Shown: positions 806 to 31,181 of the stretch, one piece after another
Layout: each line of letters opens with the position of its first letter
Position numbering within the stretch: position 1 is the first letter of the stretch
The notes under the pieces: model-generated
The model's database searches: none
Seen by the model: the letters and a program-made list of their open reading frames with translations, nothing else
What the model was told of the DNA's origin: nothing
Made by a program: the position numbers and the translations under genes
Assembly (NCBI GenBank): GCA_015232535.1
Contig: JADFZM010000001.1
Coordinates: 35,263 to 99,262 of the forward strand
DNA length: 64,000 nucleotides
Origin: Candidatus Omnitrophota bacterium
Lineage (GTDB): Bacteria; Omnitrophota; Gorgyraeia; Zapsychrales; Zapsychraceae
Direction: 5' to 3'

Positions 806-843
806 TTTATATGCTCCTTGGCTTTAAATAAGTCATACATTAA

Positions 844-1689: not shown

Positions 1690-1777
1690 GTTCTGTAAAA
1701 AGTTTTTACTTTAAATATCCTTATCTTCTGCCATTACAAAAAGTTCTGTTTCTGTGGTTTGCCTCCACTATTAAGAT

Positions 1778-1862: not shown

Positions 1863-1930
1863 AATATTTCATATCTCCAATCCTATTTTATAGACAATTT
1901 TCATAAAACTATTGACACTATCGGTACGCA

Positions 1931-2884: not shown

Positions 2885-2897
2885 ATTTTATAAACCT

Positions 2898-5843: not shown

Positions 5844-6300
5844 TAAGGTTAAGCCTTAATTTATATAATTTTTCCGTAGGAAGGCTGACTATTTCCTTTG
5901 GTTTTAACTTCTTTTTCAATTCATCGAGATTAAATTTAAGCTCCTGTTTTGAGCGGGCGCTTAATGTGAACCACATGTTTAAGCGGTGTTCCCTTAAGTA
6001 ATTGTGGCTTATATTTTGTCGGTTATTGATTATTTCCCTAGTCGTTTTTATTTTCTCTTCGGGGATTTGACAACCGATCAAAGTGCTGACAAGCCCGAGC
6101 TTCTTCGTGTTAAAACTGAAATTAATCCTTTTAAGCAGTTTTTCCTTCTTAAGCCATTTAAGGCGCGAAATAAGCTCTCTTTCTTCGATCCCGCATGATT
6201 TTGCCAAGCTTTTATAAGGCTCGGCAGAGATCTCCAAGCCCTGCTGGGTTTTTGATAAAATACTTTTCATTAAATCGTCTAAATAATATTTCTTACTCAT
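5833..6300 (-). CDS. Siroheme decarboxylase subunit (AhbA/AhbB family), start moved to internal Met
   Basis: AsnC-type HTH (LAKSCGIEERELISRLKWLKKEKLL). The ATG at 6298-6300 forms an ATGA overlap with the upstream radical SAM stop; the ORF-track N-terminal extension would overlap that gene. Confidence 0.68.
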   Translation of the reverse strand: MSKKYYLDDLMKSILSKTQQGLEISAEPYKSLAKSCGIEERELISRLKWLKKEKLLKRINFSFNTKKLGLVSTLIGCQIPEEKIKTTREIINNRQNISHNYLREHRLNMWFTLSARSKQELKFNLDELKKKLKPKEIVSLPTEKLYKLRLNLNVN

Positions 6301-8275: not shown

Positions 8276-8325
8276 TTTTATTAAATTGTTGAAATCGTTT
8301 ATATTGTTAAGCTGTTTGATCAAGG

Positions 8326-9483
8326 TTAAAGTATTGATTTTGATTCGTTTACTAAAACATCCTCTGTTTTTGTTGAAGTTTGCTCTAAGTAACAAGCCGG
8401 GTCTTCAGCCCAAAGTGAGCCGTAATAAGCCTTTGCCCGGGCCCGGCATCCGCCGCATATTTCTTTATGCCGGCAAGAACCGCAGCGGCCTTCTAAGTGG
8501 TCTTTCTTATTTCTAAATTGTTGAAGCAGTTCATTGTTCCGGTCGTTAAGAATATCAAATAGCGGTTTTTTGCGCACATTGCCTAAGAGCGAATCACGCA
8601 AGAATTGACATGGAAAAACGTCGCCGTTTGAATCAAGATAAACAACCCTATCCCCCGCAGAACAGCCGCGGTGCGCTGTTATGCATGAAACAGCCTCTTT
8701 TTTATCCGCAAGGTTTTCAAGCATAAAAATACCGTCTGCAGGATTATCGGTTGTAAGCACTTCAAATTCAGGGTCTTTAAGTGATATTTCTCGGACCTTA
8801 AGCAAGAATTTCTCCATTAATTTCCTTTTGTCCTCCAGAGGCAGGTCTTGTTCTGACGAAGCCCTTCCGGAATATACCAAATGATAAAGGCAGAAGCGCT
8901 TAGTGCCGCTTTGAACTGTTTTATCAAGCACATAAAATAGGTCATAACTATTTGAAGCGGTTAAAGTAAATCTTACCCCGGTTTTCACTCCGGAATTGTT
9001 TAAGAGCTTTATACCTTCCCAGCTTGCGTTAAATGAGCCGGTAGAGCCGCGGAAAATATCATGCCATTCTTCCCTGCCGTCTATGCTGACTCCTACATAA
9101 TCGACTTTGGCTTCTTTGATCTTCTTGGCCATTTTGGTATTTATCAAGGTGCCGTTAGTTGAAAGCCCGACGCGCAGCCCTTCGTCCTTGCAGGCTTTGA
9201 TAATATCGAAAATATTAGGGCGTAAAAGCGGCTCCCCTCCGCTAAGCAATACAATCGGGGGGTTTAGCTTCTTGATCTCACTTGCCAGGTTTATGCACTC
9301 TGTATCGGTAAAATCAGCTTCTTTTAATTCCGGAGATGATTCGCGATAACAATGAGCGCATTTTAAATTGCATTTGCTTATAATATTCCAGACAAACAAA
9401 GGGCCCATTGCCCTTAAGGTATGTTCGGTCCTCTCGCCTTTATGTATTTTAGTCCATGGGATCATAATGAATTCTCCAGGCAA
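8326..9483 (-). CDS. Radical SAM/SPASM protein of the NirJ-like AhbC/AhbD type
   Basis: CNLKCAHCY cluster, LSGGEPLL motif, C-terminal SPASM cluster (GRCGSCRHKEICGGCRARA). Confidence 0.75.
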   Translation of the reverse strand: MPGEFIMIPWTKIHKGERTEHTLRAMGPLFVWNIISKCNLKCAHCYRESSPELKEADFTDTECINLASEIKKLNPPIVLLSGGEPLLRPNIFDIIKACKDEGLRVGLSTNGTLINTKMAKKIKEAKVDYVGVSIDGREEWHDIFRGSTGSFNASWEGIKLLNNSGVKTGVRFTLTASNSYDLFYVLDKTVQSGTKRFCLYHLVYSGRASSEQDLPLEDKRKLMEKFLLKVREISLKDPEFEVLTTDNPADGIFMLENLADKKEAVSCITAHRGCSAGDRVVYLDSNGDVFPCQFLRDSLLGNVRKKPLFDILNDRNNELLQQFRNKKDHLEGRCGSCRHKEICGGCRARAKAYYGSLWAEDPACYLEQTSTKTEDVLVNESKSIL

Positions 9484-10970
9484 GATTTGATCAATCCGGC
9501 AACCGTATGTTCTTTTGCCGAATGTATCTGCCTTATCCCGATTTTCTTGAGCATCCCGGTTGTGACAGGGCCGATAGAATAAAACGGGGTCTCTTCGGTT
9601 AAGGAGCCGTTTATATTGCTTGGAATATTGGCAAAGAATGTTTTAACTGATTTAGGGCTTAAAAAGAATATTCCGTCGGACTTCTTGGCGAGGGCCTTGG
9701 CTATCCTTGTTTTATCGGGCTGCCCTTCAATGTTATACACTGTGCAATCGGTTAGCTTAGCCCCGGCTCTAATTAAAATTCCTTTTAGATAATCGCGGTC
9801 AAGGCTTGTGCGTAAAAGAGCGATATTTTTATCATTAATACCTTTATTTCTCAGAGCTATGGCTAAATTCCTGGTGGTGAACTTATCCGGCATAAGCGCC
9901 GGGTTTATACCGAATTTTATGAATTCTCCCGCTGTTCCTGACCCGACGCAAGCAATCCTTCCTTTTAGCAGGGTTTTATTTCTGTTTAATGCAAAAAATC
10001 TCTTCAGAAAATAATATACGCCGTGTCGGGAGGTAAAAACAAGCCAGTCAAAGGCCTTAATATCGGCGATTATGTTATCAAGGTATGATGTGTCCTTATT
10101 TGGAACGACTTTTATCATCGGTAGTCGTTCAACCTTAGCGCCTAATGATTCTAACCCGAGGGAAATATCATTGTTTAATGTTTCGCTGGCTGTTGAGATA
10201 AAACTTTTGTTTGAAAGAGGTTTTAAGTTAGGATTCAGGCGGTAAGCAAGCTTAACCGTATCGCCTATAACACAGATAGCCGGAGCTTTTAAATCAGCGG
10301 ATTTATTGGCGATCCGAGCTAAATTAGACATAACAACTTTTTCTTTATCCGTCGTGCCACTTTGAATGACAGCGGACGGAGTTTTAGGGTCTTTACCGAA
10401 GGCGATGAGTTTATCGGTTATTGATTTAAGGTTAGATAATCCCATCATGATTACTAGAGTTCCCGAGAAATTGGCGGCGTGTTTCCAGTTTATGCTTTCT
10501 TTTTCTTTAGACGGGTCTTCGTGGCCGGTTAAAACCATAAAACCGCTTGAAACGCCACGGAAAGTGAGAGGTATCCCGCACACTTCGGGAACAGAATAAA
10601 AAGAGCTTACTCCCGGAATAACTTCGCAATCAATATTGTTTTCTCTTAAAAACAGCATTTCTTCCTGGCCGCGGCCGAAAATAAAAGGATCGCCGCCTTT
10701 AACTCTGGCGACTGTCTTGCCTTTTGAGGCAAAAGATAGGATGGTTTGGTTTATCTTTTCTTGATCTATCGATCGTCCCTTTTCTTTTCCTACAAATTTT
10801 AAGATTGCGGATGGCTTGGCATATTTTAATATGTCTTTGGAAATAAGCCGGTCGAAAAGGATAACGTCTGATTTCTTCAGGCATTCAACGGCTTTGAGGG
10901 TTAAAAGCTTAGGGTCCCCCGGTCCTGAGCCGATCAAATAAACTTTTCCATTTTTTATTTTATTATTCAT
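9462..10970 (-). CDS. cobA: Uroporphyrinogen-III C-methyltransferase fused to uroporphyrinogen-III synthase
   Basis: N-terminal half has the SUMT signature (VYLIGSGPGDPKLLTLKA ... VARVKGGDPFIFGRGQEE); C-terminal half is HemD-like (AFDWLVFTSRHGV). Confidence 0.88.
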   Translation of the reverse strand: MNNKIKNGKVYLIGSGPGDPKLLTLKAVECLKKSDVILFDRLISKDILKYAKPSAILKFVGKEKGRSIDQEKINQTILSFASKGKTVARVKGGDPFIFGRGQEEMLFLRENNIDCEVIPGVSSFYSVPEVCGIPLTFRGVSSGFMVLTGHEDPSKEKESINWKHAANFSGTLVIMMGLSNLKSITDKLIAFGKDPKTPSAVIQSGTTDKEKVVMSNLARIANKSADLKAPAICVIGDTVKLAYRLNPNLKPLSNKSFISTASETLNNDISLGLESLGAKVERLPMIKVVPNKDTSYLDNIIADIKAFDWLVFTSRHGVYYFLKRFFALNRNKTLLKGRIACVGSGTAGEFIKFGINPALMPDKFTTRNLAIALRNKGINDKNIALLRTSLDRDYLKGILIRAGAKLTDCTVYNIEGQPDKTRIAKALAKKSDGIFFLSPKSVKTFFANIPSNINGSLTEETPFYSIGPVTTGMLKKIGIRQIHSAKEHTVAGLIKSCLENSL

Positions 10971-11862
10971 TAATCTTTTTCAACTGTATCTTTAAACTGG
11001 CGATTAAATTGTCTGTAATTCCTGAGGCATTGTCTTTCGCCCCTTTTTCACTTTCCTTTATGAAACATTTTGCTTTTTCGCTGTAATATTTCGCGTTTAT
11101 TGAAAAGTTGCCTTTAATAAATTTGGCATAAACACCGAACGGTGTCCGGCAACCTATTCCTAAAGCTTTCAATACATTTCTCTCTAAAAGAGCGGATTTC
11201 TCCGTTTCAATACAAGAGCTTTTTCTAAGAATACTGTTTAAATCCTTATCGTTATCCCTTGTTTGAGCGCAAATTATGCCTTGCCCGGCCGCAGGGACAA
11301 AGCTTTCGCTGTCGAAATACCGGACGATCAAGTTTTCATATCCTAATCGTTTCAAACCGCAAGCAGCCAATATAAGCCCGTCGTATTTGCCCCCGTTCAT
11401 CTTTCTGATGCGGGTATCGATATTCCCTCTTATGGGCAATACAATCGCTTTGGGCTCGATTTCTTGTATAAAGTACATCCGACGCGGGCTGTCTGTGCCG
11501 AGCTTCAAACCCGCGAGTTGGCCCGATTTTAAACCATCGCGCAGTACCAGGCAATCTCTTCGGTCTTCTCTTTTGGCGAAACAGGACAACTTAGTGCCTT
11601 TTTGAAGTTTCACCGGGACATCTTTTAAACTATGCACGGCGCAATCAATTTCTTTATTTATAAGTGCTCGCTCGATTTCTTTTGTGAAAATGCCTGTTCC
11701 GATAGCCGTAATCTTATTTTTGCGGTCCCGGTCGCCTTGGGTCAGGATAGTTTTTATCCGGTAATCAAGGTTTACATTCTTTCTTTTTAAAAAGGCTATG
11801 AATTCAAAGAGCTGTTTATTCGCTAAAGCGCTTTTCCTTATACCAAAGATTATTCTGCGCAT
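10963..11862 (-). CDS. hemC: Hydroxymethylbilane synthase (porphobilinogen deaminase)
   Basis: KTILTQGDRDRKNKITAIGTGIFTKEIERALINKEIDCAVHSLKDVP motif block. Confidence 0.9.
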   Translation of the reverse strand: MRRIIFGIRKSALANKQLFEFIAFLKRKNVNLDYRIKTILTQGDRDRKNKITAIGTGIFTKEIERALINKEIDCAVHSLKDVPVKLQKGTKLSCFAKREDRRDCLVLRDGLKSGQLAGLKLGTDSPRRMYFIQEIEPKAIVLPIRGNIDTRIRKMNGGKYDGLILAACGLKRLGYENLIVRYFDSESFVPAAGQGIICAQTRDNDKDLNSILRKSSCIETEKSALLERNVLKALGIGCRTPFGVYAKFIKGNFSINAKYYSEKAKCFIKESEKGAKDNASGITDNLIASLKIQLKKINE

Positions 11863-12905
11863 AAAAGTAACGAAGGAAGTACGCCTGTGTTCTTTTTCTG
11901 ATCGAGGTACATTTCCCTTCGGATTATCTCCTCCGCTTTGTTCGCTTCGATCGAGCGGCTATAGAGTGTTCTATCAATTACCGGCGATAAGTCATCGATA
12001 TTGTATAGCTTTACACCGGCAATATTCCTAACCGCTTCCTCAACATTTCGAGGCACGCCAAGATCGACGAAAATAATTCTTTTATGACGGCCGTGCAATA
12101 TCGCGCTCACCATATCTTTGCTGATAATATGAGGAGCGGCAGTGGCGGCGACAACTATATCTGAAAGCGCGATTTCTTTTGCTATCTTTGAGAAATCGGT
12201 AACGCGCACGTTAAGCTTAACTGCGGCGTTTTTGGCTTTTGCTATATCGCGGTTTGTAACAACGATTTCCTTAAGGGGAAGCTCGGATAGTTTCTTTGTT
12301 GTCATAACGCCTATTTTCCCGGCGCCGATTACAAGAATTCTTTTATTCGATAAATCCTGTTCCTTTTTAATAAGGTCGACAACAACTCCGGATATCGAGG
12401 TAACTCCGCGGGATATGCCGGTCAAGCTGCGAACTTTCTTCCCTATGCGCAGGGAATCCTGAATAGTTTTATGCAGTATAGAGCCTATTGCCTTTGATGA
12501 ATCGGCTTTTTCATAGGCCTTTTTGATCTGGCCGAGGATCTGGTTTTCTCCTAAAACCATTGAGTCCAGGCCGCTCGCCACCCGGTTAAGGTGTATGACC
12601 GCCTCTTCGTTGGTTTTATTGTAGAAGTAATGCTCAATATAACTTTGCGGTAATTTATGCGTGCGGCAGATAAAATTTGTCAGCTTAGCGGTAATTTTAG
12701 AAATGCTTTCTCCTACGGCATATATCTCGACCCGGTTACATGTTGAGAGCATCAAAGCCTCTTCTATATCCAAATTGGATGATAGTTCGCGGTAATATTT
12801 ACTCAGCGATTTATCCTCAAAGCTGAATTTTTCGCGTATTTCTAGCGGGGCCTTTTTGTGGTTTGTCCCGATAAGAACAATATTTAAGTTATTGCTGATA
12901 GGCAT
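11850..12905 (-). CDS. hemA: Glutamyl-tRNA reductase
   Basis: LSTCNRVEIY catalytic Cys motif; NADP-binding LVIGAGKIG. Confidence 0.9.
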   Translation of the reverse strand: MPISNNLNIVLIGTNHKKAPLEIREKFSFEDKSLSKYYRELSSNLDIEEALMLSTCNRVEIYAVGESISKITAKLTNFICRTHKLPQSYIEHYFYNKTNEEAVIHLNRVASGLDSMVLGENQILGQIKKAYEKADSSKAIGSILHKTIQDSLRIGKKVRSLTGISRGVTSISGVVVDLIKKEQDLSNKRILVIGAGKIGVMTTKKLSELPLKEIVVTNRDIAKAKNAAVKLNVRVTDFSKIAKEIALSDIVVAATAAPHIISKDMVSAILHGRHKRIIFVDLGVPRNVEEAVRNIAGVKLYNIDDLSPVIDRTLYSRSIEANKAEEIIRREMYLDQKKNTGVLPSLLLCAE

Positions 12906-13677
12906 GATGGCTTACCATAAACAGGCTTACGCCGAAGAAAGTTGTTAACATGGCTAAAAATCCCACAACCGAGATGACCGATAGCCAAAAGTGTTTAAGT
13001 TTAAATGCTTTTTCCAGGATCACAGCCAAAGCGTAAATTATAAGGGTGATTAGCGCCCAGGTCTCTTTTGGGTCCCAGTTCCAATAAGTTCCCCAGGCTG
13101 TATGCGCCCAAATCGAGCCGGTCGCTATGCCGAAGAATAAAAGTATTACTCCGAAAATAATAAGGCCGCTATTCAAAGGCTGAAGGCCTTTTGTGTCTTT
13201 GCCCCTTTTCTCGGCGATTATCGAATAAACGCTTATAGCAAAAGAAATCCCAAAGGCGCTGTAACTTAAAATAATTGCCGGAACGTGTATTCCCAGCCAA
13301 AAACTTTTTAAGAGCGGGTTAAGCGGTTGGATTGTTTTATCCAGCGTTAGGTCGTATATTAAGATAATATCAAACAATAAAAACGCCAATCCCTGTATGA
13401 TCTTCCCGGTATTTTCTTTGATAAAAATGATATAGACAGCGCTTAAAAGCCAGGCGTAAAAATAAGTGATCTCAAAAAGCGAGACCATTGGCAGATGCCC
13501 CTGTTCGCGGTACCTTATAATAAGGTAAAAGAAACCGGCGGTTAAAGCGACTATCAGCCATTGCTTTGAGTAAGTGAAAAAAACGGGCTGCTTTTTGGAA
13601 ACGAAAAGAAGATACAAAACAGTCCCGATCAGATAAAAGAATGCGGATGTATAGAAAAATAATATGTTATATTGCAT
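12889..13677 (-). CDS. CcsA/HemX-family cytochrome c assembly membrane protein
   Basis: Polytopic membrane protein with Trp-rich WWD motif (WAHTAWGTYWNWDPKETWALI) and conserved His residues; it occupies the hemX position of the hem operon. Confidence 0.78.
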   Translation of the reverse strand: MQYNILFFYTSAFFYLIGTVLYLLFVSKKQPVFFTYSKQWLIVALTAGFFYLIIRYREQGHLPMVSLFEITYFYAWLLSAVYIIFIKENTGKIIQGLAFLLFDIILIYDLTLDKTIQPLNPLLKSFWLGIHVPAIILSYSAFGISFAISVYSIIAEKRGKDTKGLQPLNSGLIIFGVILLFFGIATGSIWAHTAWGTYWNWDPKETWALITLIIYALAVILEKAFKLKHFWLSVISVVGFLAMLTTFFGVSLFMVSHHAYQQ

Positions 13678-14122
13678 TAGCTAGTTTATCCCTAATTGCT
13701 TTTGCTTTTGCCGGGCTTTGGCCGTTTGTAGAAATACCTATGGTCAGCCCTTTTCTTTTTAATATTGCCGGCATTATTATTGAGCCCGGCCCGCTTTTAT
13801 CTACTACATTGACTAAGGTATTCGCTTTATTAGCGTCGGATAATACTTTCTTATTGACTTTAGCGTTATCTGTTGCCGCTACTATCAATTTATATTTCTT
13901 TAATGAAATATTCTTAGGATAAAGGGATTTTATGCATTTTATCTTCCCTTTTGACCTTAAACGTTCAATCGGCGCGATTATTTCCGGGCTGATACAGGTA
14001 ATTTTTGCCCCGAAATTTCTGAAGACCGATATTTTCCTATAAGCTACTTTTCCTCCGCCGACGACCAAACAATTTTCGCCTTTTACCTTGAGGCATACCG
14101 GCATATAGCTGCATAATTTCAT
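13667..14122 (-). CDS. Precorrin-2 dehydrogenase / sirohydrochlorin ferrochelatase (SirC/CysG N-domain type)
   Basis: Rossmann GGGKVA motif (CLVVGGGKVAYRKI); about 150 aa; first gene of the heme operon. Confidence 0.78.
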   Translation of the reverse strand: MKLCSYMPVCLKVKGENCLVVGGGKVAYRKISVFRNFGAKITCISPEIIAPIERLRSKGKIKCIKSLYPKNISLKKYKLIVAATDNAKVNKKVLSDANKANTLVNVVDKSGPGSIIMPAILKRKGLTIGISTNGQSPAKAKAIRDKLANAI

Positions 14123-14132
14123 GTCAGTTAAT

Positions 14133-15323
14133 TTACCTCTTTTTTAAAATAATATGACAAACATTACATTTCCCGCGGTATTCATGCGGGGAAACAGCTC
14201 CTTTTAATATAGGAGGAGGATTAGGCAAAATATCTCCCGCATCAGTCGGCAGCTGTCCTCCTGTTTTCATAATAATATGACAGGCGGTACAAGGCTTATT
14301 ACGGCTTCTGTGCGGGCTAAGAGCTCCGGGTGTTATCGGTTGAGCGGCCTCGTTTTGTGAAAACCCTAAACTTCTTTTTGATGAAATAGTATATTCGATG
14401 ATTTGCCCTCTGCGGGAAACTATAACCTTAGCCTTAAACCTGTTTTTTACCATTCTGGTTGCTTCAGTAAAAGCAACTAAATCCGGGGTGGCTATCTTTT
14501 CAATTCCAACAACCATATCTCCGGCCAAAACTCCCGATTCAGCCGCCTCGAGAGATATCTCATCGATCAACAACCCCTTTGTATTCGGCGGGATATTGAA
14601 TTCCGTGGCTAACTCAGGCGTAAGGGGAATAAGCTCCATACCGAGCCAATGCCCTTCGATAAGTTCTTTCGATGCCGCCCCTTGCTCTTTAGGAGTAGGC
14701 AGCTGCAAATTAGGGTCAACCGGAGCCGCATTCATTGTGCCGGCTTCGGCTGTTTCTGCCGGAGAATTATTGGCAAAAGCGATTTGATGAGCCGCAGGAT
14801 CGGCATTGTTTTGCTGTTGGGGTTTAGCTTCTAAGGGTACAGAGTTAGAATCCCCGGGAGCGTTTTTACCCGTAACGCCCATATCAAGGTTAAAAACGCG
14901 CTTGATATTGTCATGAATGCCTAATTTGTTTTCCAGGGTTATATAAAGCGGCTGGCCGTTTCTTAATATATCTAAAAGAGCGCCTTGGTCCAAGCTTGTA
15001 TCTTTCGTAACCTTTAGAAAGTCGGATATTTTCTTTGTTTTCTTATTATTGATCGATTTTATAAGGTCTCCGCTGCGTACACCCGAACTGTAAGCCGGAT
15101 CCTCACACCAATTTACAACAACCCCAGCTTCATCTTTCGGTATATAAAATTCCATGGCATTAGCCGGTGTGATATCGCTTACCGACATTCCGGCCCACTC
15201 TGCCTCACCTGCCCCGATGTGCATCAGCGCCGCGAGAAAAATAAGGCCTATCAAGCAAACGGATAATATAAGGAAGAACCTTTGCTTGTTTTTATGTTTA
15301 TATTCGGCTAAGATGTTAGGCAT
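14133..15323 (-). CDS. Membrane-anchored PDZ-PDZ protein with two C-terminal CxxCH heme motifs of magnetochrome type (MamP / MamE-Cter-like)
   Basis: N-terminal TM, two PDZ-like segments (GVRSGDLIKSI; GVLAGDMVVGIEKI), then SPHRSRNKPCTACHIIM and SPHEYRGKCNVCHIIL. Confidence 0.6.
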   Translation of the reverse strand: MPNILAEYKHKNKQRFFLILSVCLIGLIFLAALMHIGAGEAEWAGMSVSDITPANAMEFYIPKDEAGVVVNWCEDPAYSSGVRSGDLIKSINNKKTKKISDFLKVTKDTSLDQGALLDILRNGQPLYITLENKLGIHDNIKRVFNLDMGVTGKNAPGDSNSVPLEAKPQQQNNADPAAHQIAFANNSPAETAEAGTMNAAPVDPNLQLPTPKEQGAASKELIEGHWLGMELIPLTPELATEFNIPPNTKGLLIDEISLEAAESGVLAGDMVVGIEKIATPDLVAFTEATRMVKNRFKAKVIVSRRGQIIEYTISSKRSLGFSQNEAAQPITPGALSPHRSRNKPCTACHIIMKTGGQLPTDAGDILPNPPPILKGAVSPHEYRGKCNVCHIILKKR

Positions 15324-15878: not shown

Positions 15879-17411
15879 TTATCTGGGTTTCTTACCGATT
15901 CCGACTTTAACCGAGCTTGGTGCTTGCTGTTGCGTTGTATTCCCCATTATCTGATGACAATTTGAGCAGACTCCCCTATATTCGTGCGTCATTGCAGCAT
16001 TAGGCGAAATAGGCGGCGCTGTTACTTGCACTTGTTGAGCTGCCTGAGCTACCGGAGCAAAGCCCTGATTATTGAAGTTTTGCTGGGCATTATATTGATT
16101 CGGGTAATAAGCACCTCCACGGGCCATGATCTGTTTGCAGTTAGGGCAACGGGGAAATTCATTGGCGCCGTTTTGTGAATACATCCTCCAATTGCAATTT
16201 GGACAAAGGAAATAACCGAGCGATTCCTGTCCTTGCCAGAAGTTTGGCTGGTTAACAGTCGGATTCGCTTGCATTTGGTTTTGCATTTGATTCGGCATTT
16301 GATTTGCCGCTAATTCCGGCAATTGCGGCCAACCGTTATTTGCCATATCTTTTGCCATCTGTGATCCGCAATTCGGGCAATTAGGATAACCATTGCCTGT
16401 GTTGGCAGCTTTTAATCTCCAGTTGCAAGAGGGACAAACAAATGGCTGTTCTCCCCACCCAAATGCAACTTGTGTCCCCGGGTTGAGTTTATTCATTGTA
16501 TCAGGATCGGGTAAATTCATCCCTTGTACCATTGCCCCTTGCATCCATCCCTGGCGCGGAAGCGGACAGACCGGACGCATTACATTCATATTCTGCATCC
16601 CCCATCCTGCATTCATCGCATCCGGCATCAATTGTCCGGCGGTAGGATATACTTGCCCGATAGGATTCATATCCTGAATTCCGAACGCTACACCCTGCCC
16701 GGGAATTTGCTGTTGCATTCTCAAGCGGCAATTGGGGCAAATCGGGCATATGTTAGAGTTGTTATTTCCGGCTTGCTGAAACTTACAATTGGGGCAGTAA
16801 AACATACAGCCCCCTCCCTGTCCTTGGCCGGCAAAACCGGCTTGGGCTACGGGCATACTATTCGCTTGCATTTGGCCTGGATTAATGGGTAATGAAGCTT
16901 GGCCGATCCTTGCCTGACGGTAAAGGTTAATTACTTTCTTGGTCGAGCCCGTATACCCGCCGAAAACTCGAATTCCGAATTGCATCAGAATATTATAACT
17001 TTGCGGGTCGATATTTCCGACAATAACCGCTTCCTCTCCTTTTCCCGCCACCAGATAAGCGATTTGCGGGTTAGGAACAGTGCCGTAATAAAGGTTCGGG
17101 ATCGCCTCCTCGAGTTTCTTTGTAAGAGGGTTTATTACTAAGAAGAATTTGGCTTGCTGCAATGAAGGCGCGACATTCGAATTAAAAGTGGAATTATCAG
17201 CGGCAACAACGATTTTTCCGCAAGCCGGATTACCTTGATTTTTAGACTTAATGTCAGGTGAGAATATGGCGTATACGCCAATAAGTAAAACAAGGATAAT
17301 AGAGGCAAAGATAAAATATGTGTTCATATCCATATCCTTTACCCTGGCTTTAAAATCCTCAACGGTTATCGTAGGGATTTTGCTTGTTTTGGCTTTCATA
17401 TTCTTTATCAT
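15879..17411 (-). CDS. Chimeric membrane protein: TM anchor, NifX/NifB-C-like (Nitro_FeMo-Co-type) domain, Gln/Asn/Met-rich region with three CPxC...CPNC knuckle pairs, and a C-terminal magnetochrome-type CxxCH
   Basis: FFLVINPLTKKLEEAIPNLYYG ... AYLVAGKGEEAVIVGNIDPQSYNILMQFGIRVFGG; CPNC/CPSC pairs spaced 11-13 aa; THEYRGVCSNCHQIM near the C-terminus. Confidence 0.6.
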   Translation of the reverse strand: MIKNMKAKTSKIPTITVEDFKARVKDMDMNTYFIFASIILVLLIGVYAIFSPDIKSKNQGNPACGKIVVAADNSTFNSNVAPSLQQAKFFLVINPLTKKLEEAIPNLYYGTVPNPQIAYLVAGKGEEAVIVGNIDPQSYNILMQFGIRVFGGYTGSTKKVINLYRQARIGQASLPINPGQMQANSMPVAQAGFAGQGQGGGCMFYCPNCKFQQAGNNNSNICPICPNCRLRMQQQIPGQGVAFGIQDMNPIGQVYPTAGQLMPDAMNAGWGMQNMNVMRPVCPLPRQGWMQGAMVQGMNLPDPDTMNKLNPGTQVAFGWGEQPFVCPSCNWRLKAANTGNGYPNCPNCGSQMAKDMANNGWPQLPELAANQMPNQMQNQMQANPTVNQPNFWQGQESLGYFLCPNCNWRMYSQNGANEFPRCPNCKQIMARGGAYYPNQYNAQQNFNNQGFAPVAQAAQQVQVTAPPISPNAAMTHEYRGVCSNCHQIMGNTTQQQAPSSVKVGIGKKPR

Positions 17412-17448: not shown

Positions 17449-18036
17449 TCATTTTAACATCGGCGAATAAGGTATAGCCGGACCGAAGACCGGAGAACCG
17501 AGCTGCCAGCTACCTTTATTTGTGCCCATTAAAGGCCCGTATTGATAATCGAAGGGAATTGTTATGAATATCTTCTTCCCATCGCGATATACATCCAGGA
17601 AAATACCTCCGGAGTATTTCACATTATTAGCCAGGTCGGCAAAATCCTGGGCGGATTTTATAGGTTTTTGTCCGATGGAAACTATCACATCCCCTGATTT
17701 AATCCCGTACTTTTGAGCAGGGCCAAGGCCTTCGTCCAGTACAAGCACCCCTTTTATCTTTTTTGGAATTTTGAATTCTTTCCTTAAACTGCGGGAAAGA
17801 TATATCACATTCATACCGATCCAGTTCATACTATCGCCTGGTTCGATCAGAGTATTTTTAACGGCAGTTGTCGGTTCGGTTCGTTCAGGCGCTTCGGGAA
17901 TAATTTCTAAAGATGATAATATCCAGCAGAAGGCTATAATAGAGAAGATAACAATACCGACAAACATTACCGGTTCCTTTTTCGCGAATTCCTTAACCTT
18001 GATTTTAAAATTATTGAATTCTTTATTTTTTTTCAT
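17449..18036 (-). CDS. Membrane-anchored PDZ domain protein
   Basis: N-terminal TM, PDZ core (KGVLVLDEGLGPAQKYGIKSGDVIVSIGQKPIKSAQDFADL). Confidence 0.7.
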   Translation of the reverse strand: MKKNKEFNNFKIKVKEFAKKEPVMFVGIVIFSIIAFCWILSSLEIIPEAPERTEPTTAVKNTLIEPGDSMNWIGMNVIYLSRSLRKEFKIPKKIKGVLVLDEGLGPAQKYGIKSGDVIVSIGQKPIKSAQDFADLANNVKYSGGIFLDVYRDGKKIFITIPFDYQYGPLMGTNKGSWQLGSPVFGPAIPYSPMLK

Positions 18037-18039: not shown

Positions 18040-19467
18040 TTATTGTATTTTTACCAGAATTTCGTCTGTTTTGCCGTTTCTTAATATTCTAACGTTTACC
18101 CCGTCTCCGCTTTTAAAGTGCGCGACTACATTCCTTATATCCTCGGCTGATTTAATTGGTACACCGGCTATAGCGACAACTATATCTCCCCTTTGTATCC
18201 CGGCGAAACTAGCCGGCGATTCGTCCAATACCCTATTTACCAAAACCCCTTTCCACGGAGATATTTTGAATTGCCGCGCGATTATCTCGTTTATAGGCAT
18301 AACTTCTAATCCGAAACGTACCGGAAGCGGCGCTCCGGGCGCGGGATTGGTTGTGGGCAAAGCCGCGGCCAGCATACCTTTTCTATCAACCGGAAGAGGG
18401 AAATTTCTTTTTAAAGCCTTTCCTAAGAAATCTTTGCAATCATTTATCGGAATAGCGAAACCTGTGCCGCTAAAAACACCGGTCGGAGCGTAAATTGCCG
18501 TATTAATGCCGATGACATCTCCGTTTAAGTCAACCAGCGGCCCACCCGATGAGCCGCGATTTATAGGAGCATCGGTTTGGAATAAATTTTGGTAACGGAT
18601 TCCTTCAATCAAGATCGATTTTCTTATCCCGCTAATGATACCGCTGGTGACGGTTTGCTCTATCCCGAAGGGGCTTCCAACGGCAACAACGTAATCGCCT
18701 ATTTGGCTGAAACTGGAATCGCCTAATTTTACCTCGGGGAACGGGCCGTCCGCTCTTAATTTTACGAGCGCTAAATCTAAATTCGGTTCCTCCGCTACGA
18801 TGTCTGCCCTTATATCGCGGGAGGGATTGCCAAAGACCGTAACTATAATATCGGTCGCGTCTTTTGTTACGTGATAATTAGTGAGCACGTAGCCGCGTTC
18901 ATCGATCACAATCCCTGCTCCGACATTTTCGTAACCTTTATTCTCGATGAATTTATCAATGGCACCGTCGAAGGGCGGAACAAATTGCATGTTTTGCGCA
19001 TCGGCAGGTTTCCTTATGTTCGTTCGAACAACCCTGATCGCGTGTATATCGCATACGGAAGGAATTATGGCGTTTACAGCATCTTTTAATGAATTTTGAA
19101 ACTTGCTATCGGTATTCGCGACTAACTGCATACCGCCGTTAGGAGTAGCTTTAGTTATTGCCGCGACTTTATAATTGGAAGACGGATTTTGATTTGGCTG
19201 ATAAGGAACACCTCCGTTAGGAAGAGCTTGGGTTATCGCCTGTGCCTGAGTATAGGCTGCTTGAGTGACCGGGGACGGAAATTGGGGCTCTCCTGCCTTT
19301 GGCATCTTGATTTTTGCCCTGGTATTTACAGTTTCGGTCTCAATTCCCTGGTTTATGTCTTCATGCCGCATTATTACCCAGAAAAGGAGCATAACCCCGA
19401 CTACGGCAAGCGCCGCAATCCAGGGCCCGAGAGGCTTTGTGCAAAATGAATCGTTAGGGTCTTCCAT
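18040..19467 (-). CDS. HtrA/DegP-family trypsin-like serine protease with C-terminal PDZ and N-terminal TM anchor (MamE-like)
   Basis: Intact catalytic triad: LTNYHV (His), DLALVKL (Asp), NRGSSGGPLVD (Ser); PDZ GIQRGDIVVAIAGVPI; no CxxCH in this polypeptide. Confidence 0.85.
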   Translation of the reverse strand: MEDPNDSFCTKPLGPWIAALAVVGVMLLFWVIMRHEDINQGIETETVNTRAKIKMPKAGEPQFPSPVTQAAYTQAQAITQALPNGGVPYQPNQNPSSNYKVAAITKATPNGGMQLVANTDSKFQNSLKDAVNAIIPSVCDIHAIRVVRTNIRKPADAQNMQFVPPFDGAIDKFIENKGYENVGAGIVIDERGYVLTNYHVTKDATDIIVTVFGNPSRDIRADIVAEEPNLDLALVKLRADGPFPEVKLGDSSFSQIGDYVVAVGSPFGIEQTVTSGIISGIRKSILIEGIRYQNLFQTDAPINRGSSGGPLVDLNGDVIGINTAIYAPTGVFSGTGFAIPINDCKDFLGKALKRNFPLPVDRKGMLAAALPTTNPAPGAPLPVRFGLEVMPINEIIARQFKISPWKGVLVNRVLDESPASFAGIQRGDIVVAIAGVPIKSAEDIRNVVAHFKSGDGVNVRILRNGKTDEILVKIQ

Positions 19468-19492: not shown

Positions 19493-19714
19493 TTAAAAAG
19501 TAAACTTTCCTGCTTCAACCGGCATTTCAGCGCCTGGAACCGGATAGGCTATAGGTGTCGCTGATGTATGCGAAGTTGCTCTTTTGTGTTTCCTGCCTTG
19601 GCCGGGATTATTGCGAAATTCATAAAATATCGCGGTTGAAATAATCACGCACACGGTAAAAATTATCAAGAACCCAACCCAAGGGTTTAGGCATTTTTCC
19701 CTGTTGACTATCAT
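19493..19714 (-). CDS. Small single-TM protein with basic His/Arg/Lys tail
   Basis: WVGFLIIFTVCVIISTAIFY helix then GRKHKRATSHTSA; 73 aa. Confidence 0.35.
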   Translation of the reverse strand: MIVNREKCLNPWVGFLIIFTVCVIISTAIFYEFRNNPGQGRKHKRATSHTSATPIAYPVPGAEMPVEAGKFTF

Positions 19715-19729
19715 AGTAATTTCCCCGGA

Positions 19730-19900
19730 TTACTTCTTGTCTTTTAATAATTTTAACCCGGTGTTCAAGGCGATCAGTCCTCCGACCAGAAGGGCTAATG
19801 GTATGAAGCCTCTTAAAAAGTCGCCGAAATTATCCCACCATCCGATGATTCCCATTAATCCGAGTACCGCCGCTATTGCCCCACCGATAACATGTGCCAT
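19730..19900 (-). CDS. Unannotated 56 aa two-helix membrane protein, MamI-like (below the ORF-track cutoff)
   Basis: Translation MAHVIGGAIAAVLGLMGIIGWWDNFGDFLRGFIPLALLVGGLIALNTGLKLLKDKK; strong RBS AAAGGAG 7 nt upstream of the ATG (rev-comp of 19898-19900); stop TAA at 19730-19732. Confidence 0.5.
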   Translation of the reverse strand: MAHVIGGAIAAVLGLMGIIGWWDNFGDFLRGFIPLALLVGGLIALNTGLKLLKDKK

Positions 19901-19956
19901 TTCTACTCCTTTCGTTTAATATCAATGACTTTTGAAAACTTTTAAAATTTTTAAGA

Positions 19957-20265
19957 CTATCCGTTCTTAAAACGGACTCCGAAGCCGCCTCTGGGATTTT
20001 CCCATTTGATCGCGCCATCCGTACATATAACCCGACAACTTCCACATTCTAAACAATTTTCGTAGGCAACTTCTATTGTCCCATGATTCTCTTCGTATGA
20101 TTTGGCCGGGCACACAATAAGGCAAGCTTTGTGCTGGCATTTCTTGCATATTTTCTTATTTATCGTAATATGGCTTATCTTATCCTTTTTGTTTTTTACC
20201 AAAAAAAGCTTATCTTCAATGGATAATTTCTTGTTCTGCTTGTTTTCTTGTTCTAAGGTTTTCAT
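19957..20265 (-). CDS. fixX: FixX-type ferredoxin-like protein
   Basis: C-terminus [32 protein letters not shown] matches the FixX family. The start at MKTLEQ gives an ATGA overlap with the fixC stop; the ORF-track start at 20289 is also possible. Confidence 0.78.
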
Positions 20266-21578
20266 ATTAAATTGCTCCATGCTCCCCACATTTCACGGGC
20301 TAAGCGGGTAAATTTCACGTTTTTCTTTACTTTCCTAAAAATCTCTTTCTTAACGGCGGTCTTAGGCTTCTCAGAAACCCGGAAATAATCGACTAAAATA
20401 TCGTTCATTAAAGTAGGATAATCATTGATCAGCGACTTATTTTTGTGCAGGAATGAGAGGAAGTTCTTGCAGTTCTTAATGTCTTGCAAGACAAAGCTAT
20501 CTTTGAGCTTTTCTTCGTAAAGGGATAAAGTTTGCGAAGAAAAATCGTTTTTACGGCGCGCCTCCATGATAGTATCGGCCGCATATATTCCGGAGGCCAT
20601 CGCTAAGTTTACTCCTTCATGGAAGAAAGATGTGTTGAGTAATCCGGCCGCATCCCCAATTACTAGAAGCCCGTCGCGATAAAGCTTTGGCAAAGAGTCA
20701 AATCCGTCGGAGGGTATCATATGCGCCATGTATTCGACAATTTCAGCGCCTTTCAATAAAGGAGCGATCGAAGGATGGGATTTAAAATCCTCCAAAATAT
20801 CATTGGGGTTTTTTCCGTTTCTGTTTTTTATAAAGTCGCTAAGCGAAAAACCGACTCCCACCGAAAGGCTGTCTTTATTCGTGTAAATAAAACCGTTTCC
20901 TAAAAGGCCTTGAACTGCTTCGCCGAAATATTCAAATGCCGCGCCCTGCCTTCCGGCCAGGCCGAAACGGTCTTCAATAACATTTTGGGGTAGGCGCATA
21001 TTTTCTTTAATCGCGATGGAGCGGCGTTCGGGGTCGATTTTCTTTCGAAGCTTGGCTTTTTCGGTGAGTATAGAATTCGCGCCTTCGGCACAGACAATCA
21101 TATCCGCCAAAAGATTATCTTCATCTCCCGAGCCGCTTGTTATACCGACAATCTTGCCTTTTTCGTAAAGAAAATCACTAACACAATAATCGGTTATGAT
21201 GCTTACTCCGGCCCCTTCGGCTTTTTTGGCCAGCCATCCGTCCATTGTTCCGCGCAAGGTAATAAAGGAGTGATTGTAAGGCTTCTCATTAAAGGCGCTG
21301 GGCATCATGTCAAAGGCTAATTCGCTTTTCCCGGCTAAAATAGAGAATTTTCTTTTTCCCACGAATCTTTCCCATGGGGCTTCATCAAAAAATTCCGGAA
21401 AGATTTTTTCCATGATGCTGGAAAAGAAAATGCCACCGAACATATTTTTAGCTCCGGGGTATTCTCCCCTTTCTATAACTACGACTTCCGCGCCTCTTTT
21501 GGCAAGGGAATAAGCGCAGGTAAGGCCCGCTGGCCCAGCCCCGACAATTATCACCTCAACTTTATCATTTTGGCTCAT
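20262..21578 (-). CDS. fixC: FixC-type FAD-dependent oxidoreductase (ETF-quinone oxidoreductase family)
   Basis: N-terminal FAD fold [32 protein letters not shown]; [28 protein letters not shown] ... VIGDAAG block typical of FixC. Confidence 0.85.
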
Positions 21579-22150
21579 AACAAGAATTTATTTAAAGGTA
21601 CTTTAGCGATCCTGTTTTTTAATGAAGCAAAATATTTCCCCGATATAAACAATCCCTTCTTAAGTTTTCCTCCTAAGTCGGCGCTTTCATCTTTTAGAAT
21701 ATGGCTATCGGTTTTTATAATTGTATCTTGTTTAGCATTTTGTATTTCATGGTATTCTTTTGGAAAGTACACCTTAAGATAACCGCATTTTGGGCAGTCA
21801 ATACCGCACTCTACTTTAAGGCCCGCATACTCTCTTAAGCTCAAGAAACAACGGTTTATCTTTTCTTTATATACAAGGCAATCATTGCAATTGTGCTTAT
21901 TTGATCCAAGGCTCTCCTTTGCTTCCCAGCAAGGTATGATTTTAACCTGCGGCTTGATGTTGTTTTTGATGCGGTTCTTGAAACTTTTTTTACTAAGCAA
22001 AGATACTATGCTTTCTTTAGGGATCCTTTGATGCCCGCCAAGCGTGGAGACGGCTTTAATTTTCCCTTGTTTTATCCAGTGCAGAACGCTAAAGCGGCTG
22101 ACGTGAAGTATTTTAGAGGCCTGAGTGGTAGTAAGATATTCTGGCTGCAT
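21575..22150 (-). CDS. Excisionase/MerR-type HTH DNA-binding protein with Cys-rich C-terminal domain (putative metal/redox-responsive regulator)
   Basis: TTTQASKILHVSRFSVLHWIKQGKIKAVSTLGGHQRIPKESIV HTH; then CNDC ... CGIDCPKCG cysteine pairs; first gene after a 667 bp AT-rich leader. Confidence 0.6.
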   Translation of the reverse strand: MQPEYLTTTQASKILHVSRFSVLHWIKQGKIKAVSTLGGHQRIPKESIVSLLSKKSFKNRIKNNIKPQVKIIPCWEAKESLGSNKHNCNDCLVYKEKINRCFLSLREYAGLKVECGIDCPKCGYLKVYFPKEYHEIQNAKQDTIIKTDSHILKDESADLGGKLKKGLFISGKYFASLKNRIAKVPLNKFLL

Positions 22151-22817
22151 TAAATTTATATATAATTAGTTAAAATTGCGATAAATAAGATGCGTGAATT
22201 ATAACAACCATATAAAAATTTATCAAGAAATATTTTTCTCTTCAAAAACTTTTTAGTTGTTGAAATTGTTGATGTTAAGCGCCTAAAATAGGATTAAAAA
22301 TACGTCGGAGTGATGAAATTTTATCTAATGTTAAGCGGTTTATTCTAATTGTCGCATGTTTTTACGCGTTTCTATAAAAGGTAATATTTAGATATTAAAA
22401 ACCTATTTCTCATTAAAATTAGCTATCCTTATTTGTTCTAATTCGTTTATTCACTTAAATTGAGTAAAATTGAGAAGTTTTTAATTATTTTATTGAAGCA
22501 TAAAACAACTGAATTGGGAATACTGAAAAATTGGCTTTAAATGTAGTGTAACACTGTAGGAAGCGAAACAAAGCATAATATTTTCCTGTAGCAGATAGTT
22601 TGTACATGGTTATTAGATATGATAAGACAATGAGTGTAACTTAATAGAGTCATTCAAATGAAAGTTGGAACATGGCAAGAATATCTAGCTGTTGCTTATT
22701 CAAATGGCAGCGTCATATTAAATAAAGTAGTTTGAATATGTTGGTTTTCCGCATCTCAAGTATAATATAAATTGTTGAAATTGTTTAATCTTTGATATAT
22801 TTGTCGACGGAATTGAA
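22151..22817 (-). promoter_or_regulatory. Long AT-rich intergenic leader/promoter region carrying two copies of the ATTGTTGAAATTGTT-type motif
   Basis: 667 bp without credible ORF; motif copies at 22254-22278 and 22768-22790; TATAAT-like hexamers present. Confidence 0.4.
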
Positions 22818-28990: not shown

Positions 28991-30196
28991 TTATTTAGCT
29001 TTGGAACGGCTTAATAGCTGAGAGTTTATCAGGCAACCTTTTGAAACGCAATTAAAAGGGTCTTTGGCTTGTCTAATTTCGTTTATGGGAACCACCATAT
29101 CGATGTTCTTAATTTCCTGTTTTACAACATCTAGGAATCCTCCGACCATTGATGTGCCACCGGCGAAAACAATGTCTATCGGCTCATCGAACTGAGGCGC
29201 TTTATCCGGGCGACGGAAAACTTGAGAAATTTGCCCTAGGAAATAACGGATGTAGTTTTTGTAAAACAGGGCTATTGCTTCTTGCTCCCTTGTTTCCGGT
29301 TTTAAAATGCTCATCCCCTTTTCCTTAACCAAGCCGGCTTTGTTCGGAGATATGCTTAGCACATTCGAAGACTGGAGGTCTATCATATCGCCTCCTTGCG
29401 CTATCGAAAATTCCATTACGACAACCGATTTATAAGCGACGCATATATTTGTCATGCCGCCGCCGCAAGATACCCCAATACCGGTGAACTTCTTCTCCGC
29501 AAGTTCGGATAGTATTACCGCAAAGCCTTCGTTTATCGGACATACTTTGTAGCCGAAACAGGAAAGCATCGTTTCGATAACATTCCGGTGATAATTAACG
29601 TCCATCATGCTGTCCACCGGTTGCGCCGGAACGCAGAAACAGCATATCTCGTTAGGGACTCTCGGTTCCCACAATAAACCCTTCACTATCATATTCATTA
29701 TAGGTATTGCTTCGCGTTCCAACGGATTAATAACTCCCACGTTCATCGGCCTTTGGGTGTTGCGGTCAAAATAATTCGAGAAATCGAAAGCGTCTTTGCC
29801 TAGGATGCAAGGCCTTTCTTTTATCCTTTGCTCGGATATGTTCATTTTCTGCAAAAGTTCTTTGGTTGAGTCATCATCGCGGACAAAAAGAAACGCGTTA
29901 CGGCTATATTTTACCTCTACACCCTTTGCTGTTTCGCGGGAAGAAACGATGTTGGCGGTTCCCATATCAAGGCCGACGCCTAATAAATTAATGTCAGTAT
30001 CAACATCCCCGCTTTGGGAAGGTATTTGAGCAACATCATTTTGGGAGGGGATTTGCGCTTTCTCAACGATAGTCCGGGGTTTTGAAGGCTGGCGGCGGTC
30101 TACAGCATGAATCGCTTTTTTAATTGGTTTTTTATTCTTAAGTTTCTTATTGATCGTTTTTTTTGGCATTGGTCTTTTTCTTTCTTCTAAAGGCAT
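28991..30196 (-). CDS. Actin-like ATPase (MamK/MreB/ParM superfamily)
   Basis: Phosphate-1 loop LGVGLDMGTANIV, GIGVSCGGGMTNI, adenosine motif DIVFAGGTSMVGGF; basic low-complexity N-terminal extension. Confidence 0.75.
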   Translation of the reverse strand: MPLEERKRPMPKKTINKKLKNKKPIKKAIHAVDRRQPSKPRTIVEKAQIPSQNDVAQIPSQSGDVDTDINLLGVGLDMGTANIVSSRETAKGVEVKYSRNAFLFVRDDDSTKELLQKMNISEQRIKERPCILGKDAFDFSNYFDRNTQRPMNVGVINPLEREAIPIMNMIVKGLLWEPRVPNEICCFCVPAQPVDSMMDVNYHRNVIETMLSCFGYKVCPINEGFAVILSELAEKKFTGIGVSCGGGMTNICVAYKSVVVMEFSIAQGGDMIDLQSSNVLSISPNKAGLVKEKGMSILKPETREQEAIALFYKNYIRYFLGQISQVFRRPDKAPQFDEPIDIVFAGGTSMVGGFLDVVKQEIKNIDMVVPINEIRQAKDPFNCVSKGCLINSQLLSRSKAK

Positions 30197-31181
30197 TTTC
30201 AGCGATCGCGCCTATAAGGCAACCGCGGGCAATTGCGTACAAAGGGTCATCGGCCAGAAAGACATTATTGATTTGAACGGGGAATTTTGTTTTCTCGATC
30301 TCACTTTTCAATATTTGGGTAAATCCTGTCGGAAGGGCTGTCCCTCCGGCGCATACGATCTCAATGGGCTTTTTAAAAACCGATCCCATAGATTTTTCTT
30401 CCAGCCTGGCGCGCAGGCATTGTACGGCATAACGAATAAGCTCTTTGTAATATATCGTTATTGCTTTCTGGGTTCTGTCTTGAGGGTTTTTAAGGTTTAT
30501 CCCTTTTTCTTTAACAGAATTGACTTGGCCCTGGCGTATGGCAAGGGCTTTGGCGGCATTTTCGTCTATCCAGTCTCCGGCACGGTTAATGGAAAAACTA
30601 TCGAGTGAATTAGCCCTATCGCTTACGCAAAAATTAAGCATTCCACAGCCGCAGGAAATCCCTATACCGGTAAAGCCGAATTCGGCCAAACTGCTATATA
30701 CGACAGCCATCCCTTCATTAACCGACTTAGCCTTGTAACCTAAAGACTCAATGATCTCCTCTAAAATACCCGTGTGATAGACGACGCGGAATTCATTTAT
30801 AAAAGCTTCGGCCGGAATAGAGTAATAACAAATAGAATTGTTCTCGGAAGCTTTGCCTAAAAGGGCGGTTACGAGTATTTTAAGAATAATCTCGGCTTTT
30901 TCTTCTTTTGGATTAAGGACTCCGTCCTGCATCGGACGGCTTAGGGCAGAACCCATCGTATTAGCCATTTTGTAAGCAGATTCCGCTAAGATGTATAACT
31001 CTTCTCCGATTTCGGCGTATTGCATCCCTTCTTCTTTCAAGAACGAGGTCATTGATTGCTCGATCTTTACTTTTAGAAAGGCATGGCGCAGTTTCTTTAA
31101 AACAATTTTTTCATCTTGAGAAAGGGAAGCGCTGATAAGGTTCATTGTCCCTATATCAATGCTTTTTATTTCTTTTATCAT
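30147..31181 (-). CDS. Actin-like ATPase (MamK-like), second tandem paralog
   Basis: IKSIDIGTMNLIS, GIGISCGCGMLNF, IEIVCAGGTALPTGF motifs. Confidence 0.75.
   Translation of the reverse strand: MIKEIKSIDIGTMNLISASLSQDEKIVLKKLRHAFLKVKIEQSMTSFLKEEGMQYAEIGEELYILAESAYKMANTMGSALSRPMQDGVLNPKEEKAEIILKILVTALLGKASENNSICYYSIPAEAFINEFRVVYHTGILEEIIESLGYKAKSVNEGMAVVYSSLAEFGFTGIGISCGCGMLNFCVSDRANSLDSFSINRAGDWIDENAAKALAIRQGQVNSVKEKGINLKNPQDRTQKAITIYYKELIRYAVQCLRARLEEKSMGSVFKKPIEIVCAGGTALPTGFTQILKSEIEKTKFPVQINNVFLADDPLYAIARGCLIGAIAENAFRRKKKTNAKKNDQ

Follow-up and report, generated by a model that had tools for sequence, protein, structure and literature searches.

A small mamI-like gene in a magnetosome gene cluster of Candidatus Omnitrophota and its relatives outside such clusters

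The 64,000-nucleotide (nt) stretch of contig JADFZM010000001.1 analyzed here (positions 35,263 to 99,262; assembly GCA_015232535.1, a Candidatus Omnitrophota bacterium), hereafter the window, contains an open reading frame (ORF) on the minus strand at 19730-19900, stop codon included, that starts with ATG and runs for 56 codons. Its translation, MAHVIGGAIAAVLGLMGIIGWWDNFGDFLRGFIPLALLVGGLIALNTGLKLLKDKK, holds the string quoted in a preliminary description of this DNA, which had reported a 56-amino-acid (aa) frame at this place. We consider it very probable that this ORF is mamI, part of a magnetosome gene cluster of Candidatus Omnitrophota, and that it encodes a membrane protein of two helices, a reading based on the ORF itself, the NCBIfam MamI model, its orthologs, their dN/dS values, profile alignment with hhalign, and AlphaFold2. 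Since published work counts mamI among the core genes that all such clusters have, it is an expected component of the window: the gene is among the nine present in every magnetosome cluster (PMC7449369), and MamI is treated as a core protein in different phyla, with 20 Omnitrophota genomes among those covered (PMC7602337).

The 56-codon ORF and its homology to MamI

The ORF is a genuine, strongly conserved gene. Its length by itself is not evidence of this, because ca. 4% of reading frames stay open over 56 codons at 41.8% GC, and many spurious overlapping ORFs lie nearby. A search of 5.8 billion proteins retrieved 70 full-length relatives at 61 to 86% identity, nearly all of them 56 to 58 aa long. 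Comparison at the codon level with four orthologous loci (L001, L007, L008, and L009) gave proportions of synonymous differences (pS) of 0.55 to 0.84 and of nonsynonymous differences (pN) of 0.11 to 0.17, with a dN/dS of ca. 0.05 to 0.17 where calculable and synonymous sites near saturation. Direct reading of the sequence places a ribosome-binding site (RBS), AAAGGAG, at 19906-19912 on the minus strand, 5 nt before the ATG (19898-19900, as reverse complement), and a GGAG-type RBS occurs at an equal distance in all five loci. The gap between the upstream gene, fixX, and the ORF is 56 nt, and only 15 nt separate its stop codon from the start of the next gene, p73 (13 to 20 nt across the five loci). 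Both the RBS and the neighbors had been named in the preliminary description and were found as described, the latter being a FixX-like ferredoxin at 19957-20289 and, at 19493-19714, a 73-aa protein with one hydrophobic segment. The relatives in public genomes are called as coding sequences, yet named “hypothetical protein.” Our assignment thus gives a correct name to a small gene still carried under that label in related genomes; small core genes such as mamI are easily lost to length cutoffs, and a check of this kind is useful for annotation quality.

By sequence comparison, the encoded protein is homologous to MamI. The only significant family for the ORF in NCBIfam was MamI (NF040963; E=3.4e-13, 49.2 bits, residues 1-53 on model positions 1-53). 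Exhaustive searching of 1.84 billion cluster representatives with phmmer (E≤1e-3) returned 111 matches, 108 of them genuine and gap-free in the alignment. One, P0112 (E=2.4e-5), stands for a cluster that includes [quoted passage not shown] and BLASTP of the window protein against the MamI of that organism gave 36% identity over 39 residues. When the alignment of the Omnitrophota orthologs was compared with one of canonical-type MamI, hhalign reported a probability of 99.2% (E=7e-20) over 54 gap-free columns. A related branch contains Mmc1_2268 of Magnetococcus marinus, named MamI in UniRef, and all 70 relatives mentioned above carry a precomputed match to Pfam PF26391 (“MamI”). The MamI-type identity suggested for the ORF at the outset, together with a similarity search against MamI as its check, was therefore borne out by NCBIfam, phmmer, BLASTP, and hhalign, as well as by the position next to mamE (see below).

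Two further results of these searches were set aside. The Pfam scan of the ORF was blank, which we rejected as evidence against MamI; the scan is uninformative because canonical MamI (P0279) also gets no PF26391 match there, and orthologs flagged with PF26391 are equally blank. Three phmmer matches to large proteins, P0072 (949 aa), P0135 (630 aa), and P0180 (711 aa), were considered as multi-hairpin fusions and rejected as soluble repeat proteins, spurious matches in which many weak similarities to a “DW.P.F.DFARG” or “WADNFGG” type motif had been summed.

Canonical MamI (NF040963; Ca. Terasakiella magnetica CAA7623088.1, here P0279) is likewise small, with two hydrophobic helices, and its gene likewise has a place near mamE in the main magnetosome operon. 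The two proteins have in common, without gaps, G7, G14, G17, W21-W22, L29, [R/K]30-G31, P34, G41, A44, and G48, position 34 being Ser in one of seven canonical-group sequences (P0164) and otherwise Pro. However, their identity is only ca. 36 to 41%, the segment connecting the helices reads WWDNFGDFLRG in the window protein and WWWSVTEFLRG in canonical MamI, and the 56 aa of the former end in a short Lys-rich tail, while the latter has 69 to 77 aa and a longer polar tail. Unlike canonical mamI, the gene in the window is set apart from mamE by p73.

The Gly/Trp pattern that had first drawn attention to the ORF is genuine. Among the 108 gap-free family representatives, little or no variation is seen at G7, G14, G17, W21, W22, F25, G31, P34, G41, and G48, and the motif G-x6-G-x2-G-x3-W-W-x2-[FV]-x3-[LM]-[RK]-G-x2-P-x6-G-x6-G, complete in the window protein, is likewise invariant or almost so in these representatives and in the canonical group. 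Conservation of the WW and FLRG positions had also been named as a check: the Trp pair holds, as does FLRG in the relaxed form [L/M][R/K]G, but a strict Arg does not hold across the superfamily, where it is found in 51 of 109 sequences (K in 23, A in 19, and Q in 9). Within the Omnitrophota ortholog group, which has 20 invariant residues, this Arg is invariant.

The window MamI is thus a small protein (56 aa, inside the range of ca. 55 to 80 aa that defines MamI) with two predicted membrane helices joined by a short turn. Hydropathy gives two hydrophobic segments, at ca. residues 4-22 and 32-48, and the stretch between them (23-31) is polar, acidic, and aromatic (W21-W22-D-N-F-G-D-F-L-R-G31); the C-terminal tail is Lys-rich, with four Lys. 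AlphaFold2, run with an alignment of 77 sequences, predicted helices at residues 2-20 and 22-55 with a mean pLDDT (predicted local distance difference test) of 95.2, and we infer that the two would lie antiparallel. Neither comparison with known structures in the PDB was productive: a sequence search with the family profile gave chance matches only (the best, at E=0.0018, to a designed protein), and Foldseek of the window MamI model gave zero matches.

Another small magnetosome protein with this general build is MamL of Magnetospirillum, which also has two predicted membrane helices, a basic C-terminal tail, and an early role (PMC3905215, PMC4902198). In the NCBIfam scan, for which the presence of a MamL model in the library was not verified, the window protein showed no detectable sequence similarity to MamL, and no family besides MamI appeared at E<0.01. 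MamL is described in the literature as absent from several non-alphaproteobacterial clusters. In mammalian cells, MamI reportedly interacts with MamL rather than with MamE.

Gene order in related loci and the putative role of the protein

To place the gene among its relatives, we scanned GTDB (one genome per species) with the alignment of close orthologs and obtained 24 loci with a close MamI relative, all but one labeled Candidatus Omnitrophota or Omnitrophica. One of the 24 is a complete 1.82-Mb chromosome. In 22 of the 24, mamI is directly upstream of mamE, and the contigs of the other two end within ca. 300 bp of the gene; the arrangement is the same in L001, L007, L008, and L009. In tblastn, 20 of the 22 MamE-bearing loci showed p73 between mamI and mamE. 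A gene with an HTH_17 (helix-turn-helix) domain lies ahead of mamI in many of the related loci, L001, L007, and L008 among them, and also at one locus outside any cluster (P0055, see below), while fixCX precedes mamI in 6 of the 24 GTDB loci (L013, L016, L017, L019, L030, and L033, the last being the same contig as L008) and in L009, a separate Joint Genome Institute (JGI) metagenome contig, and is missing from most other Omnitrophota clusters. The 24 GTDB loci include six in which a heme/CcsB block comes after mamP, as it also does in L009. Overall, the close ortholog group (61 to 86% identity) is linked to a cluster in every informative locus except for the single lineage of P0055. Many loci carry isolate names in the “nXXbinN” style, which we take to be those of the magnetotactic metagenome-assembled genomes (MAGs) of Lin et al. 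2020.

Among these MAGs, nDJH15bin6 (GCA_015233405.1) and nCal2bin1 (GCA_015234065.1) encode orthologs of the same length and operon position, listed at NCBI as “hypothetical protein HQLxx_....” The former is the closest relative, with MamE 77%, MamP 74%, FixC 79%, and MamI 84% identical, and has both fixCX and the heme block. The best identity of any database protein to the window MamI was 86%, with none identical, so the window comes from a species-level lineage unrepresented in the collections searched. Apart from this, no functional difference sets the window MamI apart from these orthologs.

The pairing of mamI with a nearby mamE recurs in the clusters of other lineages (L035 and L036), and mamI stands near mamE in the Magnetospirillum mamAB operon too, with the order mamH-I-E. 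L036 (GCA_042564965.1, JBHPKY010000010.1), labeled “candidate division KSB1 bacterium,” holds a magnetosome-type cluster with MamI, a Nitro_FeMo-Co protein, MamE, magnetochrome proteins, a LapA_dom protein, and two cation diffusion facilitator (CDF) transporters. The layout of L035 is the same, plus a second mamI copy.

What the protein may do can be outlined from work on Magnetospirillum. There, a fusion of MamI with green fluorescent protein (GFP) marks the magnetosome membrane and is mislocalized without MamE; deletion of mamI abolishes magnetosome membranes in M. magneticum AMB-1, whereas in M. gryphiswaldense MSR-1 normal-looking vesicles remain, only some of them with particles (PMC4902198, PMC3905215). 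We infer the topology, packing, localization, and role of the window MamI from its homology to that protein. It would insert into the cytoplasmic membrane, gather with MamE and other core Mam proteins in the magnetosome membrane as this forms, and help early organelle formation through membrane remodeling, crystal nucleation, or both. The invariant glycines (G7, G14, and G17 in helix 1; G41 and G48 in helix 2) could form smooth faces for the tight packing of the helices or of several hairpins. The Trp-Trp-x-x-Phe belt, with Gly31 and Pro34, may set a tight turn at the interface on the side of the lumen, and the positive, Lys-rich tail would stay cytoplasmic according to the positive-inside rule. 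A role associated with MamE is plausible, given the tight linkage of mamI, p73, and mamE and the reported dependence of MamI localization on MamE.

The alternative that survives best overlaps with this account and seems to us rather unlikely: the protein is still MamI, but its chief task would be to serve an enzyme as a small membrane-bound subunit or partner, the enzyme being either the MamE protease (with p73) or the FixCX pair. For MamE, it can draw on the tight and conserved mamI-p73-mamE order, with the 13 to 20 nt from mamI to p73, and on the MamE-dependent localization of MamI in Magnetospirillum (PMC4902198). For FixCX, there is the position of fixX 56 nt before mamI, the recurrence of fixCX ahead of mamI in the seven loci listed above (six from GTDB plus L009), and a flavoprotein gene that is also found in the P0055 locus, two genes upstream of the HTH-MamI pair. 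However, most Omnitrophota clusters have mamI without fixCX, and a FixCX-specific role is therefore not general. The reported interaction of MamI with MamL rather than MamE in mammalian cells also speaks against this alternative.

MamI-like proteins outside magnetosome clusters

MamI has been called “MTB-specific” (magnetotactic bacteria, MTB), with “no homologous proteins except in other MTB” (PMC4902198, PMC3905215). Our searches retrieved relatives in other settings, and we found nothing relevant in the literature on MamI homologues outside magnetotactic bacteria. One group consists of Syntrophales proteins of 92 to 110 aa (P0188, P0196, and P0208), in which the hairpin is followed by a charged, coiled-coil-like tail of 40 to 60 residues. 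At three Syntrophales loci (L004, 10001-10312; L005, 10001-10279; and L006, 10001-10279), one of them on a 2.47-Mb contig, the proteins have 92 to 103 aa and the genes lie between hisI and dctP (of dctPQM) in two cases and beside plsB in the third, with no other match to the proteins of the window cluster within 10 kb. By hhalign, the Syntrophales group matched the Omnitrophota group at 99.1% probability and canonical MamI at 98.2%, while the matches of its members to PF26391 were weak.

Two further cases come from Omnitrophota. A 68-aa protein of Omnitrophota WC317 (P0352; locus L037, 8001-8207) has a PF26391 match and is encoded beside tatA/tatC, yqeY, NUDIX, and uvrD genes; no Mam gene lies closer than 10 kb. 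P0055 (56 aa; ERZ1426847, a 115-kb contig) is 73% identical to the window MamI and paired with an HTH_17 gene; its neighbors are Nramp, MgtE, ArsP, and a tRNA methyltransferase, in addition to the flavoprotein gene mentioned above. P0352 and the Syntrophales proteins have the motif frame of the hairpin in common with the window MamI but are located among housekeeping genes instead, and the Syntrophales form differs further by its coiled-coil-like tail, by the conservation of Y46 and D50, and by having K, A, or M in place of R30. The two Omnitrophota genes of the MamI family outside clusters were recorded for L037 (8001-8207), the P0055 locus, and L028 (4375-4542).

From these findings, the published statements on MTB specificity appear too strong. 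Whether MamI is the branch recruited to magnetosomes within an older family of membrane proteins built as Gly/Trp two-helix hairpins, and thus not specific to magnetotactic bacteria, is for us an evenly balanced question. If so, the relatives in nonmagnetotactic bacteria could offer an independent route to the membrane effect of the hairpin and shed light on how the magnetosome toolkit came together. In any case, since the MamI hairpin family extends beyond magnetosome clusters, matches to the MamI model alone are unfit as a marker of magnetotactic bacteria.

The same relatives give substance to a second alternative, namely, that the window protein is a generic small Gly/Trp hairpin with a general membrane function, merely encoded beside magnetosome genes. 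Members of the family do occur in housekeeping contexts (the Syntrophales loci L004 to L006, L037, and P0055), and those outside clusters obtain MamI-model scores similar to that of the window protein and reach 99.1% by hhalign. The spread of homologs over nonmagnetotactic genomes had been named beforehand as a result that would speak against MamI; what we found is that this holds in part for distant relatives, which lie in housekeeping contexts, while the close ortholog group, P0055 excepted, stays linked to clusters. In all 22 informative species-level loci that group is directly upstream of mamE, an order kept fixed while synonymous sites became saturated, and chance co-location is therefore no explanation. 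Moreover, the pairing of mamI with a nearby mamE recurs in the unrelated clusters L035 and L036, and the architecture of the noncluster relatives differs, in that their coiled-coil tails are long and Arg30 is replaced by Ala, Lys, or Met. We thus regard a generic hairpin as quite improbable.

Several points nevertheless weigh against identifying the ORF as the mamI of this cluster. With 49.2 bits, the window protein lies below the equivalog criterion of NF040963 (at least 80 bits) and is therefore filed in the broader MamI family and not in the NCBI equivalog. Canonical MamI (P0279) reaches 105.4 bits on this model, while the cluster-linked Omnitrophota ortholog P0001 (45.2), P0055 (43.3), and the Syntrophales proteins (40.5 to 44.1) all score much like the window protein, so that members within and outside clusters are about equal. 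It follows that sequence alone cannot prove orthology to the magnetosome MamI and that the assignment rests on genomic context. That context is itself not without exception, as the P0055 locus has no other Mam genes within 10 kb. In the AlphaFold2 model, the break between the two helices is a single residue. Finally, magnetotactic Omnitrophota are uncultured, and localization and phenotype of MamI are known from Magnetospirillum only; even there, its molecular role is still unsettled and strain-dependent (PMC4902198).

The weakest alternative, that the ORF is a chance open frame (the antisense shadow of a plus-strand feature or noncoding spacer) from which no protein is made, has in its favor the ca. 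4% of frames of this composition without a stop over 56 codons and the presence, on both strands, of overlapping ORFs about as long (19704-19919, plus; 19830-20045, minus), but it is refuted by the homologues, the codon comparison, and the conserved residues, that is, by strong purifying selection in exactly the mamI frame and by 70 full-length homologues with 20 invariant residues and a conserved RBS, to which a significant match to a curated family model and a confident structure prediction can be added, and its probability is next to nil.

The magnetosome gene cluster of the window

Judging from its gene content, the Candidatus Omnitrophota magnetosome gene cluster in the window is complete. 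Its genes are all encoded on the minus strand and run from HTH through FixC, FixX, MamI, p73, MamE, PDZ protein, magnetochrome protein, MamP, heme block, MamM, MamB, and MamA to MamQ. The genes for HTH, FixC, FixX, MamI, p73, MamE, and onward are probably cotranscribed and translated together. The first gene of this putative operon (21575-22150) encodes a DNA-binding protein with an HTH_17 domain (Pfam, E=3.2e-10; weak NCBIfam MamR match, E=2.4e-4) and a Cys-rich C-terminal half. Ca. 50 nt upstream of it, at 22198-22226 on the same strand, lies the sequence of the region that best matches a sigma-70-like promoter (TTGATA-17-TATAAT with TG, 11/12), a match to the consensus only; in the scan for promoters and terminators, match counts were not above shuffled expectation.

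Next come the FixC-like flavin adenine dinucleotide (FAD)-dependent oxidoreductase (20262-21578; NCBIfam FixC, E=1.1e-98) and, directly upstream of mamI, the FixX-like ferredoxin (NCBIfam FixX, E=9e-14), a pair that may be a dedicated electron-transfer module for the control of iron redox state. The small protein p73, between mamI and mamE, has no family match in NCBIfam or Pfam. Its N terminus (M-I-x-N-K-E-K-C-x-x-P-W-x-G-F) is conserved in the five loci and its middle part is basic, and we consider it a candidate lineage-specific magnetosome gene. The mamE-like gene (18040-19467; NCBIfam MamE, E=5.4e-74) encodes a serine protease with a trypsin-like and a PDZ domain (Pfam Trypsin_2 and PDZ_2).

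Downstream of mamE, a syntenic 195-aa protein (17449-18036) has a MamP-like PDZ domain (NCBIfam MamP, E=1.2e-13 over the PDZ region; Pfam PDZ_2). It is followed by a 510-aa protein (15879-17411) that combines a Nitro_FeMo-Co-like domain (Pfam, E=4.8e-5) with a C-terminal magnetochrome domain (Pfam MCR PF18509, E=2.6e-9) and whose Gln/Asn/Met-rich region carries several CxxC...CxxC zinc-ribbon-like repeats; related clusters have it in synteny. The product of mamP (14133-15323; NCBIfam MamP, E=7.5e-62) has PDZ and magnetochrome domains. The distal part of the cluster, at 101-3788, consists of mamM (2898-3788; NCBIfam MamM, E=2.8e-74), mamB (1931-2884; NCBIfam MamB, E=4.8e-71), mamA (844-1689; NCBIfam MamA, E=9e-36), and mamQ (101-805; NCBIfam MamQ, E=1.6e-28).

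Between mamP and mamM, ca. 10 kb (4060-14122) is taken up by a block recognized by its gene content, with HemL, AhbB, AhbA, AhbD, HemB, an AhbC/NirJ1-like protein, CobA-HemD, HemC, HemA, a CcsB-like protein, and precorrin-2 dehydrogenase. This is a complete set for siroheme-dependent (Ahb-type) heme synthesis plus a CcsB-like cytochrome c synthase, a plausible source of c-type heme for the magnetochrome proteins. We found nothing in the literature on heme-synthesis genes inside Omnitrophota magnetosome clusters. A cluster variant with a FixCX-type redox pair and a complete block for heme synthesis and cytochrome c maturation points to a built-in heme supply for magnetochrome proteins. In our view, these side observations, the embedded FixCX and heme pathway and the MamI relatives outside clusters, are of more interest than the mamI finding itself.

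Elsewhere in the window, the region at 36 to 48 kb was considered as a second part of the cluster and rejected, as it holds FeoB, Fur, UbiE, Pst phosphate transporter genes, and a Ca-type P-ATPase. The FeoB of this region (703 aa, E=4e-205) and the Fur-family regulator are encoded at 36649-39749 on the minus strand, which places genes of iron uptake ca. 15 kb from the cluster. Closer by, ca. 7 kb upstream of the cluster, two adjacent and slightly overlapping actin-like ORFs (28991-31181, minus strand; 401 and 344 aa) show weak similarity to MreB and MamK and are possibly divergent magnetosome-chain actins.

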